A DNA stretch of 64,000 nt, from IMG/VR virus record IMGVR_UViG_3300035501_000524; one strand, given 5' to 3'. This document shows positions 169 to 16,853 of the stretch, piece by piece (the first letter of the stretch is position 1; each line of letters starts with the position of its first letter). The stretch comes from a virus (lineage: Duplodnaviria > Heunggongvirae > Uroviricota > Caudoviricetes). The position numbers and the translations under genes are program-made. Under the pieces are notes generated by a model, which ran no database searches, was not told the origin of the DNA, and worked only from the letters and a program-made list of their open reading frames with translations.

Positions 169-309
169 TCAGTCTTCCTCTTCATGCTCATCCCTAAATC
201 CCTGCTCAGGGCAGTCGCGCCAAGGATTCCGCAACATGCAACCCCCATCTGCGTAGTAAGGGCAGTCCCAATTATCATCAATGCAATCCCAATCAACTGG
301 CTTTTTCAT
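169..309 (-). CDS. Small Cys-rich protein with acidic tail, 46 aa, family C (WDCP...G.C motif). The start was trimmed to the ATG after the conserved RBS, because the 66-aa ORF in the track reads through the leader.
   Basis: ATG at 307-309 preceded by GAGAGG. The upstream part of the track ORF translates the promoter leader as SNEREVKEM. Paralog of 12242..12394. Confidence 0.5.
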   Translation of the reverse strand: MKKPVDWDCIDDNWDCPYYADGGCMLRNPWRDCPEQGFRDEHEEED

Positions 310-340
310 TTCTTTTACCTCTCTTTCATTTGATACACTT

Positions 341-369
341 ATTTTACCATGAAAAAACATCGTTGTCAA
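341..369 (-). promoter_or_regulatory. Sigma-70-like early promoter: TTGACA (rc of 364-369), 17-bp spacer, TAAAAT (rc of 341-346)
   Basis: Hexamers read as the reverse complement. They are followed by the leader ATCAAATGAAAGAGAGG and then the ATG of 169..309. Confidence 0.6.
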
Positions 370-373
370 GAGA

Positions 374-395
374 AAAATCCCAATTTCTTGGGATT
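374..395 (-). terminator. Hairpin AAATCCCAA-tttc-TTGGGATTT after the stop of 402..812, followed on the minus strand by TTTTTCTC; probable intrinsic terminator
   Basis: Stem-loop plus U-run on the transcribed strand, immediately before the next -35 box. Confidence 0.55.
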
Positions 396-401
396 TTTTC
401 T

Positions 402-812
402 TTATTTTTTCGGTTTTCGCTTCTGAACAAGCGTAAATTCATAGGTTTCATCCCCAATTTGGAAAGAAATCTGTCTTTCTGCATTAGTAATTGTAACATT
501 TTCATAGGAAATTTCGGAATTTTCCTGCAAAAACTGTGCAATTTGTGCAATTACACCAGATTTTGTGGTGTTTTCTTTCTTTTTTTTCTCGAATTTATAG
601 GTTGTAGGCTTCTTTGTGGTAGTTTTTGTACCAGTCTTAGTGTTCGCCTTAACTACCTTTTTCTGCTCTTCTGTCAAGTCATTTGTGACTTCCTTCATTG
701 ACATTTTATCGACCTCAAGGTCATCCATTACAAGGGCAAGTGCTTCATCTCTGGACAGACCTAAAACTTTCATCTGTTTGGAAACTTCCTTTTCAATCTG
801 TTGTGGTGTCAT
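402..812 (-). CDS. Early protein family B, 136 aa: N-terminal helix-extended-helix/SAP-like motif (KQMKVLGLSRDEALALV) and a Lys/Thr-rich middle region
   Basis: ORF with its own promoter at 846-874 (TTGACA-17-TATACT) and the leader ATCAAATGAAGAAAGGAAG. Paralog of 4864..5232. Confidence 0.6.
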   Translation of the reverse strand: MTPQQIEKEVSKQMKVLGLSRDEALALVMDDLEVDKMSMKEVTNDLTEEQKKVVKANTKTGTKTTTKKPTTYKFEKKKKENTTKSGVIAQIAQFLQENSEISYENVTITNAERQISFQIGDETYEFTLVQKRKPKK

Positions 813-911
813 TTTATCGACTTCCTTTCTTCATTTGATACATTAAGTATAGCACACAATTCTAGATCTGTCAAGAGTTTTTTAAACTTTTCCCCTACGG
901 GGAGGGGAGGA

Positions 912-1289
912 TTACTCCTCCTCCTCAATTTCCGCAAGCTTGAAGTAAGCTTTTCTCTTTTCCTCAAATCTGATAACTTTACCTTCATCTTTGAGCTGTC
1001 TAACAAGGGCTGTTACTTTCTGGTTTGCTAAACCTTCCAGTTCCGGAATTTCCTTCATCATCTGGGAGATTGTAGCGGAAGCACCGCCTGCAAGATGAGT
1101 AAGGATAACATTTTTCAGACCTTCATTAGCAGTCTGGGTAGCAGTCGGCTTGCGCTCTGCTGAATTTTTCTTAATGGTCTGCTCAAGAATTTTCTCAAGC
1201 TTTGTAACTGCTTCTTCATTACCTGTTGCTCTAACTGCTTCGATTGCGATTTCAAGGGCTACTTTGTTTGTCATTTTGTTGTTCATCAT
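912..1289 (-). CDS. Early protein family A, 125 aa: MTNKMTNK N-terminus and a predicted winged-helix-like C-terminus; putative DNA-binding protein
   Basis: Promoter TTGACA (rc of 1369-1374), 17 bp, TATAAT (rc of 1346-1351), with an A-tract UP element at 1375-1397. Paralogs at 2984..3361 and 5327..5710. Confidence 0.6.
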   Translation of the reverse strand: MMNNKMTNKVALEIAIEAVRATGNEEAVTKLEKILEQTIKKNSAERKPTATQTANEGLKNVILTHLAGGASATISQMMKEIPELEGLANQKVTALVRQLKDEGKVIRFEEKRKAYFKLAEIEEEE

Positions 1290-1413
1290 GGTATCTACCT
1301 CTTTCTTTCTTTTTTTTATTTGTTTTCTTTGTTCTTTATGTATTTATTATATCATGGGTTATTAGGTTTGTCAAGCTTTTTTTTTATTTTTTTTTGGATT
1401 TTTGTTTGGGGAT

Positions 1414-1776
1414 TCAATCCCCAAACATTTCCTTTACTTTGATAACTTTCTCATACTCGATGTCGAAATTTCTCCATTCACCAGAAGGCGAATAGTAGTA
1501 ATGCCCAATTGATGGGGTCAAACCATTGTAATCATCAAAAGGATTAGAAAGACCTTCTTCCTCTCCCCAATACTGGATAAACAAAGCGGCTTCTTCGGTC
1601 TTAGTTCCGATGAAGTAGGCATCTTCTAATCTCTCAACTGAATTACCTTCTTCATCTGCTAAAGTGAACTGTCCAACAACCGCATTCAGTGCAAGCTGAA
1701 ATTCATAGTTTCTGCATTCATCTTCATCCCAGAACTGTGCTCCATCATTAGCTTCATAGTAAGTTACTTCCTTCAT
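1414..1776 (-). CDS. Hypothetical early protein, about 120 aa; start moved to MKEVTYY
   Basis: The first ATG of the track ORF is the ATG inside the conserved leader ATCAAATGAAGAAAGGA. The ATG at 1774-1776 has proper spacing from the RBS. Confidence 0.5.
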   Translation of the reverse strand: MKEVTYYEANDGAQFWDEDECRNYEFQLALNAVVGQFTLADEEGNSVERLEDAYFIGTKTEEAALFIQYWGEEEGLSNPFDDYNGLTPSIGHYYYSPSGEWRNFDIEYEKVIKVKEMFGD

Positions 1777-1833
1777 TTTATCAATTCCTTTCTTCATTTG
1801 ATGTATTTATTATATCATGGGTTCGGGGTTTTG

Positions 1834-2010
1834 TCAACCCCCAAATCCAAACTTTTTAGCGATTTTTTTACATCTCGCTATTCTTGCTTCTTCATTACCG
1901 CTTTCCATCTGGAAAGTAGTGTACTTTACTTTAAAAGGATGTCCAGAAGCAACCGCTTCTGCATAGCTTGTGGTTTCAACTCCATTTACCAAATAAGATA
2001 CTTTTGTCAT
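1834..2010 (-). CDS. Hypothetical small early protein, 58 aa (MTKVSYLVNG...)
   Basis: Promoter TTGACA-17-TATAAT at about 2046-2074, leader ATCAAATGAAGAAAGAGAGG, ATG at 2008-2010. Confidence 0.5.
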   Translation of the reverse strand: MTKVSYLVNGVETTSYAEAVASGHPFKVKYTTFQMESGNEEARIARCKKIAKKFGFGG

Positions 2011-2011
2011 T

Positions 2012-2221
2012 TTACATTTCCTCTCTTTCTTCATTTGATGTAATCATTATAACATAGATTTGAGGGTCTGTCAATAGTTTTTTTAACTTTTCTCGATTTT
2101 TTCTTCTAGCTGACCGCTTTACCATGCGGGCGTCTTTTGCCCTGTTCCGATTATGAACACATTTTGCGTTGATGTCCCAACAGGTAAAGCCCACCATTGT
2201 TTCTCTCTTAAAAGCATCCAT
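2012..2221 (-). CDS. Hypothetical basic small protein (RNRAKDARMVKRSARRKNRE); the C-terminal part overlaps the next promoter, so the true end is uncertain
   Basis: Promoter TTGACA-17-GGTATAAT at about 2238-2268 and a strong RBS AAGGAGGG before the ATG at 2219-2221. Confidence 0.4.
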   Translation of the reverse strand: MDAFKRETMVGFTCWDINAKCVHNRNRAKDARMVKRSARRKNREKLKKLLTDPQIYVIMITSNEEREEM

Positions 2222-2342
2222 TGTTTGTTCCCTCCTTTACTTTCTAAAGAAATTATACCAAAATTTTGGGAAAATGTCAATTCCGGAATATTAACCAAAA
2301 TTTGAGAAGAAAATTTGTATAGATTGACTATTGACGAAAAAC

Positions 2343-2400
2343 CGGCCGTCGCATGCGACCACGGCCGGCCAATTATACTACATCTTCTGGAATTTGTCAA
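2343..2400 (-). promoter_or_regulatory. Repeated-element copy A: minus promoter TTGACA (rc of 2395-2400), 17 bp, TATAAT (rc of 2372-2377), firing directly into the GC hairpin CCGGCCGT...ACGGCCGG (2343-2368) followed by TTTTT
   Basis: A promoter, hairpin and U-run with no ORF between them. It lies about 80 nt upstream of the promoter of 2012..2221. Confidence 0.5.
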
Positions 2401-2440
2401 GTAGTAAAATTGCATAAAAAAAAGAAGCCCGAAGGCTTCT

Positions 2441-2641
2441 TTAACTGTAGAAGTATGCGGCTTCCCTCATTTCCTCCTCTGTACATTCCACATGACACAT
2501 GTCAGTTGCGTATGCGGCGACTCCTACCCAGCTTCCGGGCTTACATCTTGCATTTGCAAGATGCTTAGCATCTCGAGCCTTTTCATTCTCAATCATTCTC
2601 GCAAGCGTTAAAGAAGTATTTACCAAACCACGAACATCCAT
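2441..2641 (-). CDS. Hypothetical small early protein, 66 aa
   Basis: Promoter TTGACA-17-TATAAT at about 2662-2692, leader ATCAAAAAGAAAGAGAGG. The terminator hairpin GAAGCC-cgaa-GGCTTC at 2424-2439 has a U-run on the minus strand. Confidence 0.5.
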   Translation of the reverse strand: MDVRGLVNTSLTLARMIENEKARDAKHLANARCKPGSWVGVAAYATDMCHVECTEEEMREAAYFYS

Positions 2642-2698
2642 TTCATTTTCCTCTCTTTCTTTTTGATAGAATCATTATATCATACCTTTTGGTTAATG

Positions 2699-2899
2699 TC
2701 AATAAGAATTTTCATAATCCACAACCATTTCTTTATATCTGCCGGAAATCGTATTTCTAAGAATCCGCCATACTCTCCAAATGGGATTTCCACCCGTAAA
2801 AGCTGAATGATAAACACTCTTGAAATTGTTTAAAGATTTTCTTTCCGTCCACGCTTTAAGTGCATGGTATGTACTTGCTTTAATGTTCCATTTTGCCAT
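2699..2899 (-). CDS. Hypothetical small early protein, 66 aa
   Basis: Promoter TTGACA-17-TATAAT at about 2925-2960, leader ATCAAAAGAAAGAGAGG. Confidence 0.5.
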   Translation of the reverse strand: MAKWNIKASTYHALKAWTERKSLNNFKSVYHSAFTGGNPIWRVWRILRNTISGRYKEMVVDYENSY

Positions 2900-2983
2900 T
2901 TTTCTTTTCCTCTCTTTCTTTTGATACTGTTATTATACCATAGCGTGGACTAGTTGTCAACCCCCTTTGGGGGAAACTGAGGA

Positions 2984-3361
2984 TTATTCCTCAGTTTCAG
3001 TGTTAAGGTAAAAGTATACCTTTCTCTTTTCCTCAATTCTGATGACTACGCCATCTTCTTTGAGCTGTCTCACAATAGCGGAGACTTTCTGGTTAGACAG
3101 CCCCTCAAGGCTTGCCACACCTTTCATAATCTCTGTTACTGTCGCTCTCTTGCCATCAGACAGGAAAGCTACAATGTCTGCTTTCAGACCTTCATTAGCA
3201 ACCTGCGTTGCTGTCGGTTTTCTCTCCGCAGAGTTCTTTTTAACAGTCTGCTCAAGAATTTTCTCAAGCTTTTCAATAACCTCTGTATTCGGGGTTTCCT
3301 GTGCTCCCAGAGTTGCGATTGCGATTTCCAGTGCCTTTTTGTTAGTCATTTTGTTTGTCAT
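2984..3361 (-). CDS. Early protein family A, paralog 2, 125 aa
   Basis: Strong similarity to 912..1289 and 5327..5710 (EKLEKILEQT.KKNSAERKPTATQ.ANEGLK). Promoter at about 3407-3437. Confidence 0.6.
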   Translation of the reverse strand: MTNKMTNKKALEIAIATLGAQETPNTEVIEKLEKILEQTVKKNSAERKPTATQVANEGLKADIVAFLSDGKRATVTEIMKGVASLEGLSNQKVSAIVRQLKEDGVVIRIEEKRKVYFYLNTETEE

Positions 3362-3993
3362 AGTATCAATTCCTTTCTGGTTTTTAGAACTTTTTCCTTG
3401 TTCCTTTTGATGTTTTTATTATATCATGTTTGATAATGGTTGTCAAGAGGTTTTTGAAAAAACTTTTTTGGGTGCTTTGCTTAGGTAAGTCTTGTTTATT
3501 TGATTGAATAGTTGGTTCCTTGCCATTCTTCAACTGGAAACCGCTTACACTCTAAGCAACTGTTTGGTTTTTCTCAACCTCTGTGACTCCATTATAACAC
3601 TCTCAGCTAAGATTGTCAAGTGTTTTTTTTTATTTCATCTTCTGGATTTTCGAGGAGCGCTCAACTCGTTTTCCTTCTTGATGCTTTTATTATATCATAG
3701 CTTGAAGTGTTTGTCAAGAAGTTTTTTTTATTTTTTTTTGAAGATGGCTCTTCCGACCGCCAATTACAACCTATCCAAGTTCGACTGTTAGGCAACTTCC
3801 TTCTTGACTATGTACTTATTATAGCACATCTGGTTTAGTTTGTCAAGAGGTTTTTTTTATTTTTTTTCTTTCGGCTTCTGGAAGCCTTTCCCTCCTGACA
3901 GTTATTATAATATCACATCTACCCCTAGAATACAATTGGTAAAATGCACAAATTTTGGGAAAAATATTTGTGCAGTTTTTTCACCGGTTTTGC

Positions 3994-4023
3994 TTGACAA
4001 AATGCTGAAGCCTGTGGTATAAT
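3994..4023 (+). promoter_or_regulatory. Repeated-element copy B: plus-strand promoter TTGACA (3994-3999), 18 bp, TATAAT (4018-4023), driving three consecutive hairpins at 4031-4057, 4055-4073 and 4077-4101
   Basis: Hexamers on the plus strand inside the minus-strand gene block. Downstream is GC-rich structured sequence with no ORF. Confidence 0.5.
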
Positions 4024-4082
4024 CGAAATTCTGGCCGCGTCAGTGGAAAGCGGCCAGCCCAATTATCGGGCTGACCTTAGGC

Positions 4083-4367
4083 TTACAGCTGATAGCCTAA
4101 GCCTTTCAGCAGGTCAATTAGCTGTTCACTCTTGGTGTACTGACGATGGTTCGGGATGAGTACAGCGGCTACCACCTCAGCTTTGTATCCGGTGTCGAAC
4201 TCCGGATCATCCAGAGCCTCCTGAGGAGTCATGAACTGGATGCGGTTGATGATGGTCACGTTGCCATCGGCGTCATTCGCATCGAGGAAGTCAGCCGCCT
4301 CAAACGGGTCAGCGAACAGTGCGTTGTATTCAGCTCCATTGATTGTCATGTAATATTTGTCTAACAT
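4083..4367 (-). CDS. Hypothetical early protein, about 94 aa (MLDKYYMTINGAEYNALF...); the track ORF start at 4541 was rejected
   Basis: Promoter TTGACA (rc of 4422-4427), 17 bp, TATAAT (rc of 4399-4404), and the leader ATCAAATGAAAGAGAGG lie inside the track ORF. The real ATG is at 4365-4367. Confidence 0.5.
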   Translation of the reverse strand: MLDKYYMTINGAEYNALFADPFEAADFLDANDADGNVTIINRIQFMTPQEALDDPEFDTGYKAEVVAAVLIPNHRQYTKSEQLIDLLKGLGYQL

Positions 4368-4510
4368 TTTCATTACCTCTCTTTCATTTGATAAGACTAT
4401 TATAATGCCTACGTGCCATTTTGTCAACCCATTTCGGGAAATTCGTTTAAAAAATTTTGCACAAAGATTTCCAAAAGAAAAACTCTGAACTATACAAACT
4501 GCACAAAAAC

Positions 4511-4570
4511 CGCCCCGCGCAAGCGTAATCGGGCGGCCCAATTATACTTCACCTTTTGGATTTTGTCAAT
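4511..4570 (-). promoter_or_regulatory. Repeated-element copy C: minus promoter TTGACA (rc of 4565-4570), 18 bp, TATAAT (rc of 4541-4546), firing into a GC hairpin at 4511-4537 followed by TTTTT
   Basis: Same architecture as copy A, flanked by several TGCACAAA motifs. Confidence 0.5.
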
Positions 4571-4641
4571 AGGCAAAATGCACAAAATTTTGATTCGTCA
4601 TTTTGCACAAAAACGTGCTTTGTGCAAATTGCACAAAAAAA

Positions 4642-4675
4642 ATGACCCCTATTTTCTGGGGTCATTTTTTTTAAA
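4642..4675. terminator. Bidirectional terminator: hairpin ATGACCCC-tattttct-GGGGTCAT with T-runs on both sides
   Basis: Perfect 8-bp GC-containing stem flanked by A8 and T8 runs. Confidence 0.6.
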
Positions 4676-4822
4676 CCAGCTGTAAGGTAAAGCGGTTTTC
4701 ATGTTCCAACAGATGCGCCTGTATTGCGCTTTTACCCTTTGCGAGAATCTCACCTGTTTCTAAATCCAAAAGAATGTTATCTGCATTTTTGTCGATTACT
4801 AAACCGAAATGTTTCATGTTTT
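4676..4822 (-). CDS. Small hypothetical protein, 48 aa (MKHFGLVIDKNADNILLDLETGEILAKGK...); not in the ORF track
   Basis: RBS AAAGGAGATAAAAAC before the ATG at 4820-4822, stop at 4676-4678. Confidence 0.35.
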
Positions 4823-4863
4823 TATCTCCTTTGCGCTTTTCCTATTTTTTGGTTTTTCGCCCC

Positions 4864-5232
4864 CTATTTTCTGGGGGCGCTCAAAACCACTTTGTATTTT
4901 GTATCATGGAAGTGAAAAACAAACTCTCTTTCTGGGTTCGCAACTTCATCAACCGCAATTCCCAAACTGTCAGACAACGCTTGAATCATGGTTGAAACCA
5001 GTTCTTCCTTGTCTGGATTCTTTTTCTTTTCCCTCTTGGAAGTATCAAACTTATAAGCTGTCACCTTTCTTTCAACCTGTCTTGCTTTCTTGGAAGCTTT
5101 TTCCTGTTCCTTAGATAAATCAAAAAGCTTTTCGCCTTTATCAATCCGCTCATCATCTTCAATCAGCTGAATTGCTTCTTCTCTTGTTAAACCGAGCAAT
5201 TTCATTTGCTTTGCAATCAGTTTTTCATTCAT
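4864..5232 (-). CDS. Early protein family B, paralog 2, 122 aa (KQMKLLGLTREEAIQLI SAP-like N-terminus)
   Basis: Paralog of 402..812. It lies immediately downstream of the family A gene 5327..5710, the same A-then-B order as 912..1289 and 402..812. Confidence 0.6.
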   Translation of the reverse strand: MNEKLIAKQMKLLGLTREEAIQLIEDDERIDKGEKLFDLSKEQEKASKKARQVERKVTAYKFDTSKREKKKNPDKEELVSTMIQALSDSLGIAVDEVANPEREFVFHFHDTKYKVVLSAPRK

Positions 5233-5326
5233 GCTGTTTTATCTCCTCTCTTTAGCTTATACTTTATTCTATCACAGCCGATTGAGATTGTCAAGGGGAA
5301 ATTTGCATTTCCCCTTGATTTTTTCT

Positions 5327-5710
5327 TTACTCTTCTTCCTCAGAAGAGTTGTAAGCGAAATACGCTTTCCGCTTTTCCTCGATTCTCACAACCAGATTTT
5401 CCTCTTTCAGATTTCTCACAAGAGCGGTTACTTTCTGGTTAGCAAGACCCTCGAGTTCCGGAACTTCTTTCATCAGTTCCGAAATTGTCTTTTTCTCACC
5501 TGTCGCTTTCAGATAAGCGAGAATGTTTTCTTTCAGACCCTCATTTGCGGTCTGAGTTGCTGTTGGCTTTCTCTCAGCCGAGTTTTTCTTGATTGTCTGT
5601 TCAAGAATTTTTTCCAATTTCTCGATAACCTCTGTATTAGGAGTTGCCTGAGCGTTCATAACCTCGATTGCGATTTCCAGTGCTTTTTTGTTTGTCATTT
5701 TGTTTGTCAT
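5327..5710 (-). CDS. Early protein family A, paralog 3, 127 aa
   Basis: Promoter TTGACA-17-TATAAT at about 5762-5795 with a long A-tract UP element. Confidence 0.6.
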   Translation of the reverse strand: MTNKMTNKKALEIAIEVMNAQATPNTEVIEKLEKILEQTIKKNSAERKPTATQTANEGLKENILAYLKATGEKKTISELMKEVPELEGLANQKVTALVRNLKEENLVVRIEEKRKAYFAYNSSEEEE

Positions 5711-5933
5711 AATACCTACCTCTTTCTTTCTTTTAATTTTTATTTTGTTTTCTTTATGTATTTATTATATCATAGGGTTTTATGTTTGTCAAGACTTTTT
5801 TTTTTATTTTTTTTTTCTTTTTTTTTATTTCACTCTTGACTTTCCTTCCCTTGCTACTCTTTAATGATACCACAGGTTGACTTGTTTGTCAAGCTTTTTT
5901 TTTATTTTTTTTTCGCCGTCCTTGTGGGCTTGT

Positions 5934-6632
5934 TTAAGCCCACAACTTCCGAACCATTTTCTTGTGCTGTTTAAAACAGTATGCAAGAATTTCTTTTTCA
6001 ATTAAAACATCTTCTAAACCAGTGTGGTTTTCAGAAAATTCATTGTTTTTTGAAATAAATCTGTAAAGGATTTCAGCGGTAAACCGAAGTCTGCCATTTT
6101 TGGTCAAATAACCATTTTCTTCACAAAATTTCTGATAAGTTGGCATTTTTCCAATAACCTGTCTTGACATTTTCAAAGTGTCGCAAATTTCAGTTCCATA
6201 AGGAAAGAAAAACCGATATTTTGATTTTGTCAGCCATCTTTGCGTATTATTTAAAGTTCCATAGTCAAAACGCATGTTGTGCGCATAGACTTCTTTTACC
6301 TCATAGAGTTTCATGTCATCTGCAAGCTGTTTTCTGATTTCATAGAAACTTGCAACAACTCTTTTGCCCTCTGCAATTTCCTTTTTATACATCGGAATTT
6401 TTTTTGCATAATAGCTTGACTTCATCAGCTCTTTTTCTTTATTGAAAATTTCATCAACAACAAAACTTCTTGCTACATACACAACACCCCTTTTATCAAC
6501 TACCGCCCAACCTATATCATAGGAAAACATGTTGCTAGGAAGAACATCTTCCAGAGTATTGTCAAGCGGACAACTCTCGCAATCTAAAACTACCTTGTAA
6601 CTAATTCTTCTGTCAATTTTTTTCTGCTCCAT
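5934..6632 (-). CDS. DEDDh-type 3'-5' exonuclease-like protein (DnaQ/RNase T/oligoribonuclease fold), 232 aa
   Basis: Candidate exonuclease motifs: I VLDCESCPLD (D.E), II YAHNMRFDYGTL (H/N..FD), III HTGLEDVLIEKE (H....D). Recognised from the motifs, not from an alignment. Confidence 0.45.
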   Translation of the reverse strand: MEQKKIDRRISYKVVLDCESCPLDNTLEDVLPSNMFSYDIGWAVVDKRGVVYVARSFVVDEIFNKEKELMKSSYYAKKIPMYKKEIAEGKRVVASFYEIRKQLADDMKLYEVKEVYAHNMRFDYGTLNNTQRWLTKSKYRFFFPYGTEICDTLKMSRQVIGKMPTYQKFCEENGYLTKNGRLRFTAEILYRFISKNNEFSENHTGLEDVLIEKEILAYCFKQHKKMVRKLWA

Positions 6633-6991: not shown

Positions 6992-7000
6992 GGAAATTTC

Positions 7001-9935: not shown

Positions 9936-10003
9936 TTTATTTACCTCTCTTTCTTTTGATAGTATTATTATAACGCCTTTACGTTCATTTGTCAATACTT
10001 TTT

Positions 10004-10379: not shown

Positions 10380-10408
10380 TTGACAAAATTGCGGGGTGGT
10401 GGTATAAT
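10380..10408 (+). promoter_or_regulatory. Repeated-element copy E: plus promoter TTGACA (10380-10385), 17 bp, TATAAT (10403-10408), driving GC hairpin 10418-10445 and then the bidirectional terminator hairpin 10464-10485
   Basis: Consensus hexamers on the plus strand within the minus-strand gene block. No ORF downstream. Confidence 0.5.
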
Positions 10409-10483
10409 TGAAAATTCCGGCCGCAAGGACAGTGCGCGGCCGGTCAAAAATTGAAACAAAAAAGAGCTAATTTCTTAGCTCTT

Positions 10484-10657
10484 TCACTTAAATATCAACT
10501 TAATAATTATCACCGCAACCCAAACCACAAAGGCCAAACCCCAGGTGAATGTAATGAACACTCCGGCAAACTGAAGAACAAACAGCAAAAGCCAAAGCAA
10601 GCCCGCAGTAAATAAGAAGTCAAGTAGTAATGTAAATAATACTGTTAGTGCTAACAT
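10484..10657 (-). CDS. Small hydrophobic membrane protein, 57 aa (two predicted TM helices); not in the ORF track
   Basis: ATG at 10655-10657 after AGAGAGGAGAAAAAG. An unusually long leader of about 100 nt, GC-rich, follows the promoter at 10758-10790. Confidence 0.4.
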   Translation of the reverse strand: MLALTVLFTLLLDFLFTAGLLWLLLFVLQFAGVFITFTWGLAFVVWVAVIIIKLIFK

Positions 10658-10787
10658 GTTCTTTTTCTCCTCTCTTTTGGAGGCTGAGAGCCTTTCCTCG
10701 GCATCGCCTCGTGTTCAAGACAACACTGGTACTTTTGGCTCCCGACACCTCTTTCTTGATGATTTAATAATACCACACTTTTGGTTA

Positions 10788-11036
10788 TTAGTCAAGCCTT
10801 TTTCTTGTTCTATTTACAGATTCAAGTAAACATGCATCAGCGAAAAAATAAATCACATGAGACCATTTTAAAGATTCTTTTGCATAGACTAACAAATCTT
10901 CTTCTGTTGGATTCTCTGGAATGCCTGATTTTCTCCAAGTGTCAATACTTTCTTGGCACTCTGTATTCATTACGTATTTCTCCATCTGTTGGAGCAAATG
11001 AAGTCTTATTTCTATTATTTCTTCCTTGCTATACAT
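10788..11036 (-). CDS. Hypothetical small protein, about 82 aa (start at MYSKEEIIEIRLH); its stop codon lies inside the -35 box of the next promoter
   Basis: ATGTATAG start/stop overlap with the upstream small gene. Confidence 0.45.
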   Translation of the reverse strand: MYSKEEIIEIRLHLLQQMEKYVMNTECQESIDTWRKSGIPENPTEEDLLVYAKESLKWSHVIYFFADACLLESVNRTRKRLD

Positions 11037-11169
11037 TGCGCTCCTCCTCTTGCTTAACAATGAACTGTAATAGTTCTATTAAGTCCTTTACATCATCTAT
11101 TGTCCCTATCTCAATGGCGTGTTCGCTATCACAACCATAGAAAATTTTATTATCTTGTTCAATGTTCAT
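11029..11169 (-). CDS. Small hypothetical protein, 46 aa (MNIEQDNKIFYGCDSEHAIEIG...); not in the ORF track
   Basis: RBS AGAGAGGAGAAGG. Start overlaps the stop of the upstream gene (ATGA). Confidence 0.3.
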   Translation of the reverse strand: MNIEQDNKIFYGCDSEHAIEIGTIDDVKDLIELLQFIVKQEEERNV

Positions 11170-11309
11170 TTTTCCTTCTCCTCTCTAAGAATTTTATTAA
11201 TGAGGTTTTTGATTTCTTTTAAATCTTCCAAATCGCAGTAAACTTTGTCGCCCCAACCGCCTTTAATTGTGTATGGATAATTTTTATCGTCGCTTCTTTC
11301 GATTGTCAT
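11166..11309 (-). CDS. Small hypothetical protein, 47 aa (MTIERSDDKNYPYTIKGGWGDKVYCD...); not in the ORF track
   Basis: Promoter TTGACA-17-TACAAT at about 11340-11372, leader ATCAAAAAGAAAAGGAG. Confidence 0.3.
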   Translation of the reverse strand: MTIERSDDKNYPYTIKGGWGDKVYCDLEDLKEIKNLINKILREEKEK

Positions 11310-11384
11310 TGTATGCAACTCCTTTTCTTTTTGATAATGTTATTGTATCACAGGGGCTGACATTTGTCAACCCCTTTTTTGAAA

Positions 11385-11798
11385 TTATTTCTGACTGATG
11401 TTAAAATCATCATTTCTATCATACAGATAGTTTGACATGAAGTCTGTTTCATCACAACCATTTACCATCATCAGAGAATACTCTTTATCTCCAAAACCAT
11501 AGAGAAGCTGTCTAATTGTTTTACCCTTTGCATAAGCATAACCGCATTCCCATGCTGTCCCGCTGTCTGAATACATCCCGAAGTTGAGAACCCACACTTC
11601 ATCAGCTTTGTCGATTGCGTCAACATCCTGCTGGAAAACCTTCCTACCCCATGTTGCATTGTCTAAATCCCACGCATTTTCAATTTCATGTTCTATTGGA
11701 GCGTAAACTTCCAAACCTTGCGCGCGCATCTTCTGGAGAATTTGAACATACATTACTCTTTCATTATTTTTGAACCATGGACTTGCTAAATAAATCAT
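11385..11798 (-). CDS. Nucleoside 2-deoxyribosyltransferase-like protein (NDT/RCL family), about 138 aa
   Basis: N-terminal MIYLASPWF, matching the IY.AGPWF motif of the NDT family, plus a later D.D..D...G..SDSGTAWECGYAYAKGK block resembling the family's catalytic-Glu region. Confidence 0.55.
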   Translation of the reverse strand: MIYLASPWFKNNERVMYVQILQKMRAQGLEVYAPIEHEIENAWDLDNATWGRKVFQQDVDAIDKADEVWVLNFGMYSDSGTAWECGYAYAKGKTIRQLLYGFGDKEYSLMMVNGCDETDFMSNYLYDRNDDFNISQK

Positions 11799-11987
11799 TG
11801 TATCAACCTCTTTCTTTTTTGATAATATTATAATATCATATTTTTTGGTAATTGTCAATAGTTATTTTTCACGTTTTAGGTTTGGACTTAATGCCCAAAC
11901 CTAATGTAGTGATTCATCCAGTTTTCGCTGAACTGCTCTTTGAACTCTTCCGCATACTCTGTATTATAACCCCTTCTGGGGCTTTTG

Positions 11988-12170
11988 TCAAGCCCCTTTT
12001 TCAAGAACTTTTATTAAATCTTCCTTTACGCAAAAGGTTCTTTTATCTCTCTTAACTGAAAAAGGACAGTTCATACAACCAATTCCAATACAGTTAGGCT
12101 CAATTAAAAGTTCGATTGCCTTAATCTCTTCTTCGTCCAGAAGTCCCCTTTTAACAACAACAGTTTTCAT
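11988..12170 (-). CDS. Small Cys-rich protein, about 60 aa (CIGIGCMNCPF...C)
   Basis: Leader AAAAGAGAGGAATTAAAAAG before the ATG at 12168-12170. Confidence 0.4.
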   Translation of the reverse strand: MKTVVVKRGLLDEEEIKAIELLIEPNCIGIGCMNCPFSVKRDKRTFCVKEDLIKVLEKGA

Positions 12171-12241
12171 CTTTTTAATTCCTCTCTTTCTTTTGATGTA
12201 TTTATTATAGCATGAAGGTTGACGTTTATCAACCCCCAATT

Positions 12242-12394
12242 TTAATCATCCTCTGTTTCCCAATATTCATCATCTTCATCCCAGAATGCCGCGAAATCAT
12301 CACATTCTTCTATTGGATTATCAATTCCGCAAGTTCCATCTTTCTTCCAGTGGGGACAATCCCAACCATTAACAGGACAATACACTTTCTTCAT
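12242..12394 (-). CDS. Small Cys-rich protein with acidic tail, 50 aa, family C (NGWDCPHWKKDGTCG...EECDDF...DDEYWETEDD); not in the ORF track
   Basis: Promoter TTGACA-17-TATAAT at about 12420-12455. Shares the WDCP...G.C...acidic-tail pattern with 169..309. Confidence 0.4.
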   Translation of the reverse strand: MKKVYCPVNGWDCPHWKKDGTCGIDNPIEECDDFAAFWDEDDEYWETEDD

Positions 12395-12463
12395 TTTTAT
12401 CAATTCCTTTCTTCTTTTGATATTATCATTATAACATGGATTGACTTAATTGTCAACAAGAAA

Positions 12464-12937
12464 TTATAATTTCTTGTTGATTTCTGTTACATTGTATTTC
12501 ACATGATATTTCTGCAAAATATCTTTGATGATAGCACTTTCTTCTCTGGTCTTACTGAAAATGTCGATGTTGTAATAGGTTTCATCTTTGTAAACTACTT
12601 CACCACAAGTATAACTAACTGAGAATGGTTCTAACTTGTTGACTAACTCTTTATCTTTTGAAGTAACTGAGATTTTCCACAAACAATCTTTCTTGCATTT
12701 TTCCATGAGCCAAATTGACGCATACACACCAATTAAATTAGTTAAGATGGTTACCGTAACAGTGATACCTAAGTCAAGACTAGCTAACTGTTTAACCACA
12801 ACCGCGTAGAATCCGTAGGACAGTGCGTTGATTGCCGCCGCGGTCTTTTTACCTGCGCGCACGGTTAAGATTGATTTCATTGTTGACAGCATTACATTGA
12901 TTAAACTACATGTAAAAAATATTATAATTGCTTGCAT
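12464..12937 (-). CDS. Membrane protein, about 157 aa: N-terminal transmembrane segments and a C-terminal soluble domain
   Basis: Start at MQAIIIFF after GAGAGAGGAG. The hydrophobic N-terminal half is read directly from the translation. Confidence 0.5.
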   Translation of the reverse strand: MQAIIIFFTCSLINVMLSTMKSILTVRAGKKTAAAINALSYGFYAVVVKQLASLDLGITVTVTILTNLIGVYASIWLMEKCKKDCLWKISVTSKDKELVNKLEPFSVSYTCGEVVYKDETYYNIDIFSKTREESAIIKDILQKYHVKYNVTEINKKL

Positions 12938-13008
12938 TTCTTTTATTCTCCTCTCTCTTGGAACTATAATTATTATACCCCGAAAGGGGTTATTTGTCAA
13001 CCCCTATT

Positions 13009-13386
13009 TCATTTATTTCTTAACATTTTAATTTCATTTTTGATTGCATTAATAGCTTCTTCACATTCAGCGATTTTCTTTTTCTTAGTTGTTTCTTTCA
13101 TTGTTTTACTTGCATAGATTCTATTTTCTTCTGCAAACCATCTATTCAGACTACGCGTTTTGAATTCAATAGTTCTCTTCTGAGAAGCTAATTCCCTTGC
13201 CTTTTTCTCTTCTTTGTTGTCGCCTCTAACCTCTACGATTTCTACCATTGCTACAGTTGCAATTCCATTTTCATTTGTTGAGATGGTTTTAAAATAATCT
13301 CCTACGTGATATTTTTTAGCTTCTTTATTAGAAATAGTTGCTACTACGTATTCTTCATGACCATTTCTTGCGATAATCTCTTTCAT
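13009..13386 (-). CDS. Hypothetical early protein, 125 aa, Lys-rich C-terminus
   Basis: ORF with promoter TTGACA-17-TATAAT at about 13430-13465. Confidence 0.5.
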   Translation of the reverse strand: MKEIIARNGHEEYVVATISNKEAKKYHVGDYFKTISTNENGIATVAMVEIVEVRGDNKEEKKARELASQKRTIEFKTRSLNRWFAEENRIYASKTMKETTKKKKIAECEEAINAIKNEIKMLRNK

Positions 13387-13482
13387 TTTATTCCACCAAA
13401 TCCCTTTAGGATTTCCCTTTCTTTATTATGTAATTATTATACCATGGGGCTGACCTTTTGTCAACCCCTTTTGGAAAATTTT

Positions 13483-13908
13483 TTAAAATAATTTCGCAAT
13501 ACCTCTGTCTCTCAGATACTCACACAACTCCTCAGCAGAAAGCACCTCAGCAAGCTTTTTAATCTTCAAGCTTCTCTCTTCCTCATAGACTACCTTGACG
13601 CCAAGAGATTTGAACTGTTTCTCTGTACAGGTTTCAACCATTTCTGGATACTTAGGAACTGTAAAACGCAGAAGAGGTTTTTTCTTAAAGAATGTTTTAC
13701 CTATCTCAGCGTTCATGATTATTCCGCTCTCTACAATCTCCTTAGCATCTTCAAAGCTAGTAATTTCATCAATTTCAAAGCTTCGTTCTTTGGCTTCTTC
13801 TTCCTCTAGATAGAAATAATGGTTATAGATGTTAGTTGGCATCCAGTTCTTCTCTCCATTAAGTTTAATGTATGTGCTATGGCTGTAAATCTTCTTCATT
13901 ATCATCAT
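13483..13908 (-). CDS. Hypothetical early protein, about 140 aa; exact start uncertain because of the MMIMKK cluster
   Basis: Promoter TTGACA-17-TACAAT at about 13930-13965. Confidence 0.45.
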   Translation of the reverse strand: MMIMKKIYSHSTYIKLNGEKNWMPTNIYNHYFYLEEEEAKERSFEIDEITSFEDAKEIVESGIIMNAEIGKTFFKKKPLLRFTVPKYPEMVETCTEKQFKSLGVKVVYEEERSLKIKKLAEVLSAEELCEYLRDRGIAKLF

Positions 13909-14081
13909 GCCCTTTCTTATCTCTTTTGATGATACTATTGTATCACACATAGCTTACTTTGTCAACGTCTTTTTTCACAAAAATAACAAGCTGTTTTTGT
14001 GCAAGTTTCACTGTGTTAAATTTTTAACGATCTTGCCCCTGCGGTCCGAACGTAGAAAAAAGAAAAGGCGGATTTCCCGCC

Positions 14082-14300
14082 TTATTCTTCCTCTTCTTCT
14101 TCCCACCCATCATCAAGCAAGCTAAACATCAACCTGTCAAGCAGGTCTTCAAGCTGAACACAAACCACGCTGAAACCAAGTCCGCAAAGACCACCTACCA
14201 AAAGAGACCAAATAGACAAGCCTGCGTAACCCCATGCAAGACCAGCTCCCAGAAGTACACAAATAACAGCCGTAATTTCAAACCTTGTTTTTTCGTTCAT
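14082..14300 (-). CDS. Small membrane protein, 72 aa: two predicted TM helices and an EEEEE tail
   Basis: Promoter at about 14352-14386 and a purine-rich (AAAAG)n leader. Confidence 0.5.
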   Translation of the reverse strand: MNEKTRFEITAVICVLLGAGLAWGYAGLSIWSLLVGGLCGLGFSVVCVQLEDLLDRLMFSLLDDGWEEEEEE

Positions 14301-14375
14301 TTCTTTTTCCTCTTTTCTTTCTTTTCTTTTCTTTTCTTTTTTACATTATTATAATATCATATTTTTTGGTAATTG

Positions 14376-14576
14376 TCAATACCTTTTTTCACGTCTTGTT
14401 ACAAGAACTTTATTCCCGTCTATCTCCTGAATACATACCTCATTTAAAGCCCCTGTATAGTGTATAGCTAATAGGGTATCTTCAGCAGACAGGGTGTGAT
14501 TCTCTGCTAGTGTATCTCCTGTATCTGTATCTATTAGTCTTTCCCAGTCTTCACTCTTAATTAGTGTTACTCTCAT
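14376..14576 (-). CDS. Hypothetical small protein, about 66 aa (start at MRVTLIKSEDWERL)
   Basis: ORF in a compositionally less AT-rich segment. Confidence 0.35.
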   Translation of the reverse strand: MRVTLIKSEDWERLIDTDTGDTLAENHTLSAEDTLLAIHYTGALNEVCIQEIDGNKVLVTRREKRY

Positions 14577-14632
14577 AGTATCATCCTTTCTTTGGCTTGC
14601 TATCATTGTGATAGCAAGCCTTTATCGCTTGC

Positions 14633-14896
14633 TTAGTGTGCATTGATGTATGTCACTATCTCATCATCTGTTATGTCCTCTGTGCCCAGGCTGTCCATGA
14701 CCAGTGTTACCCTGTCGCCCATGCTCATAGCTACATCTTCCATCACCCAGAGATAACCATCTGTATCTTCCAGCCCTACATACTGTACACCATCATACTC
14801 ATTGACCTCATACACTACAGCCTTCACTGTGTACATGTCTGTCTGTGCTGTGCTACCTGCCATCATCATTGCCATTGCTAATACCATTGCTTTCAT
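14633..14896 (-). CDS. Small secreted protein, about 87 aa, with a predicted signal peptide (MKAMVLAMAMMMAGSTAQTD)
   Basis: Hydrophobic N-terminus followed by A.T. Promoter TAGACA-17-TATAAT at about 14912-14945, overlapped by a perfect 15-bp inverted repeat. Confidence 0.45.
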   Translation of the reverse strand: MKAMVLAMAMMMAGSTAQTDMYTVKAVVYEVNEYDGVQYVGLEDTDGYLWVMEDVAMSMGDRVTLVMDSLGTEDITDDEIVTYINAH

Positions 14897-14968
14897 CATC
14901 GTCTATCGACTCCTTTCTTTCCTTACCTTGTAAACACATTATAGCACACACACTGCTCCCTGTCTACT

Positions 14969-15012
14969 GGCAGATTGCACAAACTTCATCATACATCTTT
15001 GTGCAATCTGCC
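14969..15012. promoter_or_regulatory. Perfect 15-bp inverted repeat GGCAGATTGCACAAA-N14-TTTGTGCAATCTGCC; operator-like, made of TTGCACAAA half-sites
   Basis: Read directly. It sits between the minus promoter of 14633..14896 and a plus-strand TTGACA-17-TATAGG promoter at 15015-15043. Confidence 0.5.
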
Positions 15013-15049
15013 TATTGACACTCACTAATTACAACATTATAGGAATGTG

Positions 15050-15223
15050 ATGATTAGCAAGCGTGCATGCCTCTTGGATCGAGAAATATTGAGCCGTCAC
15101 GTCAATCGAAAATTCGGTCCATCTCCTGCGTCAATGGCCCGGTGCGCAGCGCTCGCGCGACACGCCTCTCAGAAAACGCGACAATACGTTTTAGACATTT
15201 TTTCCGAGATAGTTTTGAAATAA
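15050..15223 (+). CDS. Candidate 57-aa basic protein on the opposite strand inside a GC-rich island (MISKRACLLDREILSRHVNRKFGPSPASMARCAALARHASQKTRQYVLDIFSEIVLK)
   Basis: Plus-strand promoter TTGACA (15015-15020), 17 bp, TATAGG (15038-15043). AGGA is 5 nt before the ATG. GC content is much higher than the surrounding phage sequence. Low confidence; the region could instead be a non-coding RNA. Confidence 0.2.
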   Translation: MISKRACLLDREILSRHVNRKFGPSPASMARCAALARHASQKTRQYVLDIFSEIVLK

Positions 15224-15367
15224 AAAATCATTAGACTGAATGATGCTTAGTGGGGGGTGTATTTCGGGAGAAAAAATTTTTTCATTTTGAATTTGATATT
15301 CCTCTGGCCATAATTCCCACCAAATCGATTTCAGAAACGAGATTACGATATTATCTCTTTCAAAATC

Positions 15368-15910
15368 CTATTTCTCTTCTTCTGGCTCTTCTTTATCTAC
15401 ATAATAAATTTTATCAATTTCAGGATTTTCAAAATTAGGTTTCCTATCCTGATATACTAAGTCCTCTATTTCTCGGCCCCAATGCGGATACAAAAAAATC
15501 TTAATTCCTTTTTCTTTTGCATATTCAATCGTTTCGTATGTTCCGCCTTCTTCAATACCATCCCAAACCGCAATCAAAATATCTGAATGGTCAACCATCC
15601 ACTTGTCTCTAAAGCCATAAGAATCTTTTCCGTCATTATATTGCGGATACAAAAAAATTACATTTCTAGCGCTTTCCATTAAATTAATCTCTTTATCATG
15701 AAAAGTTTTTCTCCAACTTGGATAAATACATGTATAAGGAATTTTATTATACTTTGCGCATTCTGCCGCAATTTGATCTACTCCTTGCGCCATTCCAGTA
15801 AAAAATTCTTCCGGTCTAATTTCTTTCAAAGTATCTTCAATCCAATTTCGAACATACCACTCATGTCCAGTTAACCTTCCAGGTCTATGCCCGGTTATCA
15901 TTGCTCTCAT
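15368..15910 (-). CDS. SLOG-superfamily (YpsA/DUF1273-like) Rossmann-fold nucleotide-binding protein, 180 aa
   Basis: Motifs MITGHRPGRL, FFTGMAQGVDQIAAE and ILIAVWDG..GGT match the YpsA/DprA/LOG-like glycine-rich nucleotide-binding pattern. Recognised from the motifs. Confidence 0.45.
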   Translation of the reverse strand: MRAMITGHRPGRLTGHEWYVRNWIEDTLKEIRPEEFFTGMAQGVDQIAAECAKYNKIPYTCIYPSWRKTFHDKEINLMESARNVIFLYPQYNDGKDSYGFRDKWMVDHSDILIAVWDGIEEGGTYETIEYAKEKGIKIFLYPHWGREIEDLVYQDRKPNFENPEIDKIYYVDKEEPEEEK

Positions 15911-16174
15911 TTACCCTTCAATAACCTCCTGTAGTTCAGTTGGAATTTCTACACCAAGTTCTTTTAAAACTTCTGCGGCTGCCAAATATTTCCCATCTAC
16001 CGATCCATAAGGCGCCAACAAAATATAATCCTTTCCTTCAATTTCTGCGGTAAAAAATTCCATCTGATTATTTTCTGAATTTATATACATGCGCGCCCGC
16101 AAACTTTTAGGAATTGTAATTCTTCCTAAATCATCAATTTTTTTTACTACATTTTCCGGTTTAACTACTACCAT
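15911..16174 (-). CDS. AbrB/MazE/SpoVT-family swapped-hairpin DNA-binding protein, 87 aa
   Basis: N-terminal KIDDLGRITIPKSLRARM matches the canonical D.LGR..IP.E.R AbrB-N motif. Confidence 0.65.
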   Translation of the reverse strand: MVVVKPENVVKKIDDLGRITIPKSLRARMYINSENNQMEFFTAEIEGKDYILLAPYGSVDGKYLAAAEVLKELGVEIPTELQEVIEG

Positions 16175-16563
16175 TATTCATTCTCCTTTTTCTCATTCAA
16201 TGTCCAACATTTTTTATTAAATAGACTACAATTTAAATTACATTGACCTCCATAGCCTTCACAAGGATGAAGCTCTTCCAAAAGAAAATCAAGACAGTGA
16301 TTGTGCGCGGTCTTGATATCCCACATCATGCTGTCCCAGCCCCATTCCTCGAAAACTCGTCGCGCAATATATTCATCTCTCATTTTAATATATTCTTCTG
16401 TTGAAACTTTGATTTTATTATCATCATCTTTGTTTTCTTTTTCTTTTTCTTTTCCAAATAAATTTCTAAAAAATGGATTTGCGATATTTTTTTCTTTAGC
16501 TATTTTTGTAAAATCGCTACTATATTTTACTCTTGCGGCCCCACTTCCACTTAATACTACCAT
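16174..16563 (-). CDS. Hypothetical protein, 129 aa, Cys/His-containing C-terminus (HNHCLD...HPCEGYGGQCNLNC)
   Basis: ORF translationally coupled to the flanking genes by ATGA-type overlaps. Confidence 0.5.
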   Translation of the reverse strand: MVVLSGSGAARVKYSSDFTKIAKEKNIANPFFRNLFGKEKEKENKDDDNKIKVSTEEYIKMRDEYIARRVFEEWGWDSMMWDIKTAHNHCLDFLLEELHPCEGYGGQCNLNCSLFNKKCWTLNEKKENE

Positions 16564-16793
16564 TTTATATCTCCTCCACTATCATCATCATTATCCCATC
16601 CTTCTGGAAGAATAACATTTAAAATCGCTTCTAATATATTTACTATTGCGAAAAAAGGACCTCCAATAATAAAAATTAAAAATACTATAATTTGATCTTT
16701 AAAAGATAATTTTGCCATTACTGGGGCATACTCTAATAGTATTATACTTGAAATAATGAGCCATAAAATTTCTATGAAAATAAATCCCTTCAA
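16557..16793 (-). CDS. Small membrane protein, first gene of the leftward early operon; probable TTG start after GGAAGGGAG
   Basis: The minus promoter at 16825-16853 lies inside the longer track ORF, so the true start must be downstream. TTG at 16791-16793 is in frame with an RBS 8 nt upstream. Confidence 0.35.
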   Translation of the reverse strand: MKGFIFIEILWLIISSIILLEYAPVMAKLSFKDQIIVFLIFIIGGPFFAIVNILEAILNVILPEGWDNDDDSGGDIKW

Positions 16794-16824
16794 ACTGTAA
16801 GCTCCCTTCCTATTTCTTACTTTT

Positions 16825-16853
16825 ATTATAACAAAAATTTTAGGTTTTGTCAA
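16825..16853 (-). promoter_or_regulatory. Leftward early promoter: TTGACA (rc of 16848-16853), 17 bp, TATAAT (rc of 16825-16830)
   Basis: Its -35 box shares the palindrome GTCAAAAAATTTGAC (16849-16863) with the rightward promoter. Confidence 0.6.

Follow-up and report, generated by a model that had tools for sequence, protein, structure and literature searches.

A minus-strand module of small genes, most of them set behind a near-identical promoter cassette of their own, occupies positions 169-16853 of a 64-kb stretch of viral DNA (64,000 nucleotides of the Caudoviricetes record IMGVR_UViG_3300035501_000524, hereafter the window). The module contains 40 open reading frames (ORFs) that are preceded by a Shine-Dalgarno sequence and encode proteins of 39-232 residues with a median of 80, together with 41 sigma-A-type promoters, all directed leftward. 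Thirty-three of the 40 genes possess their own promoter and seven belong to small operons (genes 2-4, 6, 15-16 and 30), while eight promoters (11991, 7057, 5892, 4569, 3846, 3717, 3619 and 2400) have no convincing ORF behind them. An earlier sequence-only reading had described about 45 small genes, each in its own unit; the dense small-gene module is confirmed, but the strict one-gene, one-unit layout is not. The ORF called from 13950 is an in-frame over-extension, the position of the promoter placing the real start at 13908. In a scan limited to the 20 largest early proteins, 14 matched no Pfam or PHROG family; the remaining six comprise AbrB/MazE-like, YpsA/SLOG-like, nucleoside deoxyribosyltransferase and 5'-nucleotidase proteins, weak winged-helix paralogs and a member of phrog_20187. 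It is reasonable to regard the region as an early block of small, mostly orphan genes driven by the host RNA polymerase, its timing and host-takeover function being presumed from the layout.

The promoters of the early module display a highly regular architecture. A regular-expression scan for TTGACA-N17-TATAAT, allowing at most one mismatch in the -10, located 36 sites, each with a 17-bp spacer, in the minus-strand interval 369-16853, and five sites on the plus strand of the whole window. With a consensus scanner, 29 perfect 12/12 sites were found in 1-17000, 26 on the minus and three on the plus strand. At a threshold of at least 11/12 the early minus strand carries 40 promoters, every one with a 17-bp spacer, against 0.32 in a Markov resample of that strand, and the remaining 47 kb of the window holds seven such sites. 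Both promoter-like sites (98 vs 48.6 +/- 7.7 in shuffles) and terminator-like sites (34 vs 10.4 +/- 3.7) are enriched in 1-17000. The consensus derived from the 41 aligned promoters consists of an A-tract at about -45 to -38, the element (C)TTGACAAA, an extended -10 of the form TRTGnTATAAT, and then AA followed by four variable bases. The near-identical promoters with A-tract, 17-bp spacer and TATAAT described by the sequence-only reading thus hold, and the alignment of 5' regions that it had suggested recovers both the consensus promoter and a leader. Three of the promoters that lack a convincing ORF (3846, 3717 and 3619) form, with promoter 3446, a four-promoter stack at 3362-3860 on the minus strand, of which only the fourth drives a gene, a winged-helix paralog. 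The perfect promoter 11991 is followed by 130 nt without a Shine-Dalgarno-preceded ORF (region 11799-11987) and by a hairpin (AGGTTTGGGCATTAAGTCCAAACCT) at the end of that stretch; the stretch may specify a small RNA or be what is left of a lost gene.

A purine-rich leader (ATCAAAAGAAAGAGAGG) separates the -10 from the ATG, with a median distance of 32 nt. In about half of the promoters (~20 of 41) the -10 is followed by the leader ATCAAA(A/T)GAAAGAGAGG. The leader ATCAAA(T/A)GAA(A)GAGAGG of the sequence-only reading is therefore real, but it does not precede essentially every gene. Taking the transcription start as ~7 nt after the -10, the leader is estimated to be ~25 nt long. The leader core AGAAAG-A-GAGGT, found in about half of the copies, is the complement of the 16S rRNA 3' end (3'-UCUUUCCUCCA) with one bulged A, and the pairing predicted for early leaders as a bulged duplex (-13.0 kcal/mol) is on a par with the -12.1 kcal/mol predicted for the AAGGAGG sites of late genes. 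The early genes employ a distinct Shine-Dalgarno dialect: AGAGG occurs in 64% and GGAG in 36% of early starts (minus strand, 169-16853), in contrast to 10% and 100%, respectively, of late starts (plus strand, 18017-61402). Similarly, in related genomes AGAGG is present in 31% of early units and in 1% of late units. A representative cassette lies upstream of gene 19 (9936-10003, minus strand), where the A-tract is followed by the -35 at 9995-9990, a 17-bp spacer, the -10 at 9972-9967, the leader ATCAAAAGAAAGAGAGGTAAATAAA and the ATG at 9935.

Hairpins contribute to the cassettes at both ends of the genes. When 70 nt around each stop codon were folded, ~25 genes were found to be followed by a clearly stable structure (z <= -2.4), of which roughly 8-10 read as canonical hairpin-plus-U-run terminators; the hairpin said to follow most genes is thus present as a structure, and as a recognizable terminator in fewer cases. 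In addition, 20 of the 41 promoters display a hairpin with dG <= -8 just upstream of, or including, the -35, several of them with z <= -4. Examples are GGGGTTGACAAGTTCAACCCC at promoter 9257 and the hairpins at promoters 13464 and 11370. The first of these forms a composite terminator-promoter at 9229-9266 on the minus strand, in which the hairpin GGGGTTGA-CAAGT-TCAACCCC (dG -16.6, z -4.9) holds the -35 and is followed by TTCTGTTATAAT. The same design, with the -35 in a hairpin, is present in relatives; in the cultured Enterococcus phage VRE9_3 many promoters hold the -35 hexamer in the hairpin loop, with the T-rich spacer as the U-tract.

The sigma factor encoded beside the module was used as a query to retrieve 228 viral contigs, of which 80 were fetched for comparison. 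Almost all loci of these relatives that extend a full 10 kb upstream display 10-19 consensus promoters opposite the sigma strand and 0-4 on the other strand. The relatives provide 547 distinct promoters with the same consensus as the window, and VRE9_3 carries 14 such promoters in the 8 kb upstream of its sigma gene. The window was further compared with its nearest relatives (L001-L004, L081 and L082, at 88-98% identity), which revealed eight insertions, deletions or replacements, seven of them with breakpoints inside cassettes. Three of the eight display duplicated leader or promoter flanks or chimeric cassettes. The gene 19 cassette (9708-9954, minus strand, comprising the ORF at 9935-9798 and the promoter 9780) is flanked by 25-nt direct repeats, AGAAAGAGAGGTAAATAAAATGAGA, at 9954-9930 and 9732-9708, which correspond to the leader plus ATGAGA; the cassette is absent from the nearest relative, L001, which has one copy of the repeat. 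Similarly, the gene 33 cassette (2642-2931, minus strand, with the ORF at 2899-2699 and the promoter 2702) lies between two near-identical leaders and is absent from L081, where a chimeric leader is found, and the 270-nt noncoding stretch between P3717 and P3446 is represented in L081 by a single chimeric promoter. Gene 23 is replaced in a relative by an unrelated 155-residue ORF with breakpoints in both leaders; gene 12 is replaced with breakpoints at its leader and the next -10, and gene 9 with breakpoints at its leader and where the next cassette begins. The last two events are insertions, one of 650 nt at the -35 of P12456 and one of 195 nt at ~7117, the latter being the event outside any cassette. 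By this comparison with relatives, the repeated cassettes are apparently substrates of homologous recombination, through which single genes are inserted, deleted and replaced.

A second element, absent from the sequence-only reading, was found in five long intergenic regions of the module. These contain consensus promoters that are followed immediately by a GC-rich hairpin, at 2400, 4569 and 7057 on the minus strand and at 3994, 6963 and 10380 on the plus strand. The complete unit is found at 6963-7057, where a plus-strand promoter (6963-6991) and a minus-strand promoter (7057-7029) face each other across the hairpin CGCCGGCC-N9-GGCCGGCG, with 95 bp between their outer edges. On the plus strand, the region 3994-4080 holds an antisense consensus promoter, GAAATTCT and a GC hairpin just past the 3' end of gene 31, with TTGTGCA boxes upstream, and the region 10380-10470 holds a consensus promoter and then a GC hairpin just past the gene 17 terminator. 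On the minus strand, the regions 4490-4569 and 2330-2400 each display a consensus promoter with its -10 directly next to a GC hairpin, after which TTTTT follows; the former has no ORF within 100 nt behind it and has TTGTGCA boxes on both sides, and the latter has none directly behind it. The relatives contain 88 distinct promoter-plus-hairpin units, at 1-4 per locus against five in the window, and about 22 of these are complete face-to-face pairs with outer -35 edges 94-97 bp apart (for example L028:2683-2776) and predicted start sites separated by ~23-25 bp. The element is kept at the DNA level in relatives with different flanking genes, and VRE9_3 carries similar antisense promoters beside GC hairpins. 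The unit is asymmetric, the antisense side reading TATAAT-GGAAATTYC-hairpin and the sense side TA(A/T)AAT-N1-3-hairpin. Across an alignment of 40 sequences, 88% of the cells of the 8-bp stem are paired, compared with 72% in shuffled alignments and 30-46% in slid registers, and 51 double-sided changes were counted against 20 expected, so that the stem covaries. The ratio of G-U to A-C pairs (13 vs 4) leans weakly to an RNA from the antisense strand, a weak strand assignment.

Read on the early strand, the hairpin precedes AAUUUCCAUUAUA or U5-6 and is a putative terminator, with a U-tract that overlaps the antisense promoter's -10. The antisense promoters would produce RNAs with a 5' hairpin, and that from 6963 would be ~115 nt long, ending at a bidirectional terminator at 7080-7106. 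A role of the GC hairpins as terminators of plus-strand RNAs was considered and rejected for 3994 and 10380, where no U-run follows the hairpin on that strand. At gathering thresholds Rfam gave no match in the whole window, and with E values up to 1 only four sub-threshold chance matches were obtained in 1-17000; the orphan promoters and the hairpin units therefore belong to no curated RNA family. The same long intergenic regions are marked by short repeated boxes. Of the 23 TTGTGCA heptamers in the window, 19 lie in long early intergenic regions (3945-3974, 4458-4636, 6802-6953, 10281-10370, 13997 and 14976-15005), often 7-9 nt upstream of a -35. All four TCCCGAAAT motifs and 10 of the 11 GGCCGG sites are located in these regions too. 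One of the 19 clustered boxes forms a perfect palindrome, TTTGTGCAAATTGCACAAA, at 4618-4638, a putative operator. The boxes are probably operators, and the phage regulator that they serve could be the AbrB-like protein or a winged-helix protein.

Taken together, the region is likely to be an array of early genes set in composite promoter-leader-terminator cassettes in a siphovirus of Bacillota, similar to the promoter-early stem-loop (PeSL) cassettes discussed below, with the leader ATG being incidental. Each cassette would combine an A-rich UP-like tract, a near-perfect sigma-A promoter (TTGACA-17 bp-TGnTATAAT) and a short purine-rich 5' untranslated region, often with a G/C hairpin at or over the -35 that would end or attenuate the upstream transcript. 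The host RNA polymerase holoenzyme would fire all cassettes at DNA entry, and each small gene would therefore be expressed strongly and independently. A ribosome bound near the 5' end would support high translation and probably protect the mRNA, in the manner of the STAB-SD and SP82-type stabilizers; with a leader of ~25 nt the bound ribosome would cover the 5' end. The adjacent phage sigma factor would then redirect the polymerase. Several points weigh against this model. The ATCAAA leader occurs in only 89 of the 547 promoters of relatives, and part of the uniformity in the window is therefore a lineage-specific homogenization. The structural block also has a few sigma-A-like promoters. Many hairpins that overlap a -35 in the window have no good U-run and may serve attenuation or stabilization instead of termination. 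The intergenic space is nearly all cassette, and selection alone would also leave breakpoints at gene boundaries, so that the direct argument for recombination within cassettes comes only from the three events with flanking repeats or chimeras. Finally, transcription starts, timing and terminator activity are all deduced from sequence.

The sequence-only reading saw in the leader consensus an ATG that would found a functional mini-upstream ORF (mini-uORF), ATG AAA GAG AGG TAA, acting as a ribosome-loading or re-initiation device. The exact four-codon ORF, ATGAAAGAGAGGTAA, exists in two copies on the minus strand, at 315-329 (promoter 369) and at 4373-4387 (promoter 4427), both stopping 5 nt before the gene ATG (at 309 and 4367, respectively), and the leader 874 holds a six-codon mini-ORF with its stop 1 nt before the gene start. 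Short uORFs near the start also recur in some relatives, where seven of 27 distinct ATCAAATG leaders have an ORF ending before the start and six one overlapping it. Against a functional role, a further seven of these 27 are plain in-frame extensions, three are out of frame and four have no start found or are unclear. Only six of the 41 window promoters (369, 874, 1837, 2074, 4427 and 8779) have an ATG in the leader, at its variable A/T position; in three of the six it is in frame with the gene, and in the other three (369, 874 and 4427) the reading frame stops before the start. The N-terminus SNEREVKEM, which had been attributed to a leader ATG, is actually leader read-through in the frame of the gene. 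In the ATCAAA leader class of relatives the seventh base varies (36 A, 27 T and 17 G), and the leader ATG is depleted among 346 related short-leader units, of which 63 contain it where shuffled leaders predict 124. The leader ATG has no Shine-Dalgarno sequence in front of it, that of the gene itself falls inside the mini-ORF, and the leader AUG, as read from the sequences, is located ~5 nt from the predicted 5' end. An AUG this near the 5' end should be a poor initiation site, leadered or leaderless. Being rare, depleted, inconsistent in frame and without its own Shine-Dalgarno sequence, the leader ATG is a by-product of the A/T-variable position, an incidental variant with no conserved uORF that would be, if anything, under negative selection; a functional mini-uORF is accordingly very improbable.

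The uniform leader could instead be mainly the recognition site of a trans-acting factor that shuts off the whole early regulon, such as an endoribonuclease or RNA-binding protein of the phage, or antisense RNAs transcribed from the plus-strand promoters; strong translation would then be secondary. The distinct early dialect, both in the window and in relatives, and the three consensus plus-strand promoters antisense to early genes (3994, 6963 and 10380) are in line with this proposal, for which phage T4 offers a precedent in RegB, a nuclease that cleaves early Shine-Dalgarno sequences. However, the 20 largest early proteins include no identified candidate nuclease or RNA-binding protein, an RNA started at 6963 on the plus strand would meet the bidirectional terminator before reaching any leader, and the dialect is equally explicable as a founder effect of cassette copying. 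We consider such a shut-off role unlikely, and it is compatible with the PeSL-like array rather than exclusive of it. Copying is central to another account, in which the repeats have arisen for the most part passively, through recent duplication and gene conversion, with many of the promoters being redundant or silent and with no designed function beyond ordinary early transcription. The eight promoters without an ORF fit this account, as do the stacks of solo promoters that are resolved into chimeras in relatives, the lineage-restricted ATCAAA leader, and the location of five of the six ATG leaders below 4500, in the downstream quarter of the module, which suggests local copying. The hexamers, the 17-bp spacing and the extended -10 are nevertheless near-perfect in the 547 distinct promoters of divergent relatives with unrelated flanking genes, and the same conservation is found in VRE9_3, whose sigma factor is 43% identical. 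This conservation points to purifying selection on the promoters themselves, and a passive origin is considered improbable.

The 95-bp units invite a further, tentative proposal. The hairpin would terminate incoming early transcripts, and the predicted start of the same-sense promoter lies within the 5' arm, so that its own transcript would escape the hairpin. The product of the antisense promoter would be an abundant small RNA, ~40-120 nt long and with a 5' hairpin as its cap. It could regulate the uniform early mRNAs in an antisense or anti-leader manner, prime replication or act as a decoy. A new phage regulatory element, in which the antisense small RNA and the early AGAGG dialect together constitute a regulon-wide post-transcriptional switch, is a speculative and rather unlikely outcome. 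Convergent face-to-face promoter pairs occur in phages 186 and P2 and, as Pant/Psar, in P22. The likeness lies in two promoters firing head-on at short range, which implies mutual interference and antisense RNA. In contrast to those pairs, both promoters of the present unit are consensus, their starts are ~23-25 bp apart with a covarying GC hairpin between them, and the unit is multi-copy, at 2-5 per early region, and is involved in no lysis-lysogeny switch. A type I toxin-antitoxin arrangement was also considered as a general account of the antisense promoters and was rejected, since it fits gene 17 alone and fails for genes 26 and 31.

The closest parallel to the cassettes is provided by the PeSLs of the hyperplastic regions of T4-type myoviruses (Arbiol et al. 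2010, PMC2839356; Comeau et al. 2014, PMC4122927). A PeSL combines a consensus early promoter and an AT-rich tract with a G-run/C-run stem-loop, for which five placements around the boxes are described, and carries a Shine-Dalgarno sequence and the start codon at its 3' end; PeSLs precede orphan genes and mediate modular shuffling, and functional tests have been published (PMC2839356, PMC4122927). The window cassettes share the consensus promoter for the host primary sigma factor (41 promoters, 26 of them perfect) with its AT-rich upstream tract, and the Shine-Dalgarno sequence and start codon at the 3' end, in dozens of copies before small orphan genes. A stem-loop lies near the boxes in both, although in the window it is found at or before the -35 in 20 of the 41 promoters and directly after the -10 in three, the other half having none; the PeSL subclass with a stem-loop just after the -10 matches the sense side of the promoter/hairpin units. 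Indels and replacements between close relatives with crossovers inside the motif are likewise shared, as in seven of the eight events in the window. In contrast, the window phage is siphovirus-like with a Bacillota host, akin to phAss-1, Enterococcus VRE9 and Lactococcus 949-type phages and unrelated to T4. Its cassettes lie in one unidirectional 17-kb block, whereas PeSLs occupy several interspersed regions, and its leader is itself repeated and a crossover site, with the face-to-face promoter/hairpin element as an extra feature. Demonstrated promoter and terminator activity and excised mini-circles belong to the characterization of PeSLs; in the window both activities are predicted from the sequence. 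By this comparison the window cassettes are best viewed as analogous to PeSLs and not as their sequence relatives.

The host-takeover module of phage SPO1 provides a second parallel. As summarized in PMC6873191 after Stewart et al. 1998, this module (genes 37-60) comprises small early genes with strong promoters and ribosome-binding sites (RBSs) in the terminal region. In both systems small early genes are clustered, the sigma-A promoters are strong and have 17-bp spacers and an extended -10, the RBSs are strong, and a phage sigma factor acts later. The same scan applied to the terminal 14 kb of SPO1 gave ~13 true promoters at 10-11/12 and none perfect, with longer leaders carrying 5' hairpins and with two divergent arms. 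The layout proposed by the sequence-only reading, SPO1-like but more uniform, is thus borne out: SPO1 has ~13 promoters for 24-26 genes in 13 kb, in contrast to 41 promoters, 26 of them perfect, for 40 genes in one direction. The SPO1 module lies in the terminal redundancy. The relatives of the window continue leftward with a noncoding stretch, a cassette and other genes. For the leader, a polypurine stabilizer of early RNA in phage SP82 was reportedly described by Hue and co-workers in 1995, and Agaisse and Lereclus are said to have described in 1996 STAB-SD, a ribosome-binding 5' mRNA stabilizer of Bacillus. The likeness to SP82 and STAB-SD consists of a polypurine sequence, strongly complementary to 16S rRNA, within ~10-20 nt of the 5' end of a phage early mRNA; the window stretch differs in doubling as the gene's own Shine-Dalgarno sequence in a leader estimated at 25 nt, where stabilization is a presumed role. 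A review (PMC7509114) treats mRNA stabilization by an RBS-bound ribosome, with SP82 among its examples and STAB-SD in its reference list. The layout of the module is already known from other phages.

Additional features are located within the module. Three paralogous proteins of 125-127 residues (MTNKMTNK..., with a weak winged-helix match) are encoded at 5710-5327, 3361-2984 and 1289-912, each behind stacked promoters and a long A-rich leader, and a second paralog pair lies at 5232-4864 and 812-402; in several of these paralogs the stop codon is inside the 3' hairpin loop. Gene 17 (10484-10795) encodes a very hydrophobic 57-residue peptide behind an unusually long, structured leader of 109 nt. 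With the consensus antisense promoter 10380 just past its terminator, its layout recalls type I toxin-antitoxin loci. The 468-nt intergenic region 14900-15367 displays a GC-rich core (GCGTGTCGCGCGAGCGCTGCGCACCGGGCC) and two TTTGTGCAATCTGCC-TTGACA-like modules in inverted orientation to each other; ~10 relatives share a conserved block of 80 nt from this region. After the last early gene, positions 1-168 form a GC-rich noncoding stretch. In relatives the DNA to the left of the window end comprises ~350 nt of GC-rich noncoding DNA with repeated CATATG-N10-GCTCAC motifs (for example L082:10640-11000), one more cassette with its gene, and then genes on both strands. This stretch could be a packaging, terminus or origin region, and no genome terminus or terminal repeat was identifiable from the relatives' sequence left of the window.

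On the other side of the module, the plus-strand genes from 16963 onward include those for a phage sigma factor (phrog_5767), a portal, structural proteins and a tape measure protein. The sigma-factor gene and its divergent sigma-A-like promoter, TTGACT-17-TATACT, head this structural block (16859-17973, plus strand), the promoter (region 16854-16965) lying back-to-back with the first early promoter. The start codon of the sigma factor is ambiguous, with a strong GGAGGTGA ~50 nt upstream of the first in-frame TTG. The portal, a virion structural protein and the tape measure are encoded in a plus-strand block of tightly packed operons with AAGGAGG-type Shine-Dalgarno sequences. The tape measure protein (33466-43626) has 3386 residues, with PF10145 at residues 190-397, and its length implies an exceptionally long predicted tail; sequences of relatives reach ~190-200 kb. 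ARAGORN detected neither tRNA nor tmRNA, and megablast of 1-17000 and 17000-41000 against 50,697 phage records returned zero matches. The nearest named phages by protein are phAss-1 (portal, 40% identity) and Enterococcus EF1 and VRE9 (~140 kb; sigma factor, 43% identity), followed by more distant siphoviruses of Lactococcus, Bacillus and Brevibacillus. We take the Lactococcus matches to resemble the 949 group. The gut phage is probably a large lytic siphovirus of a Bacillota host, and the host is probably one of the Clostridia, which the phAss-1 paper proposed as hosts of that phage. The words promoter, sigma and early are all absent from that paper, and literature searches returned no account of the early region for phage 949 or this clade, nor of the face-to-face promoters.

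The analysis removes, for want of support, a tempting uORF story, and it supplies an annotation rule for the starts and transcription units of these genomes, in which the ATG lies ~32 nt past a consensus -10. The cassettes may also serve as compact parts for strong expression in Bacillota, if their strength holds true in reporter assays. The clade of Bacillota siphoviruses to which the phage belongs is large and abundant, with more than 200 metagenomic relatives and with cultured Enterococcus phages among its members, and one of these, VRE9_3, makes the convergent promoter/hairpin element open to experiment. For the biology of these viruses, the array would extend promoter-terminator cassettes and the shuffling of orphan genes beyond the T4-type phages of Gram-negative hosts, to Bacillota siphoviruses in which they appear in an even more regular form.

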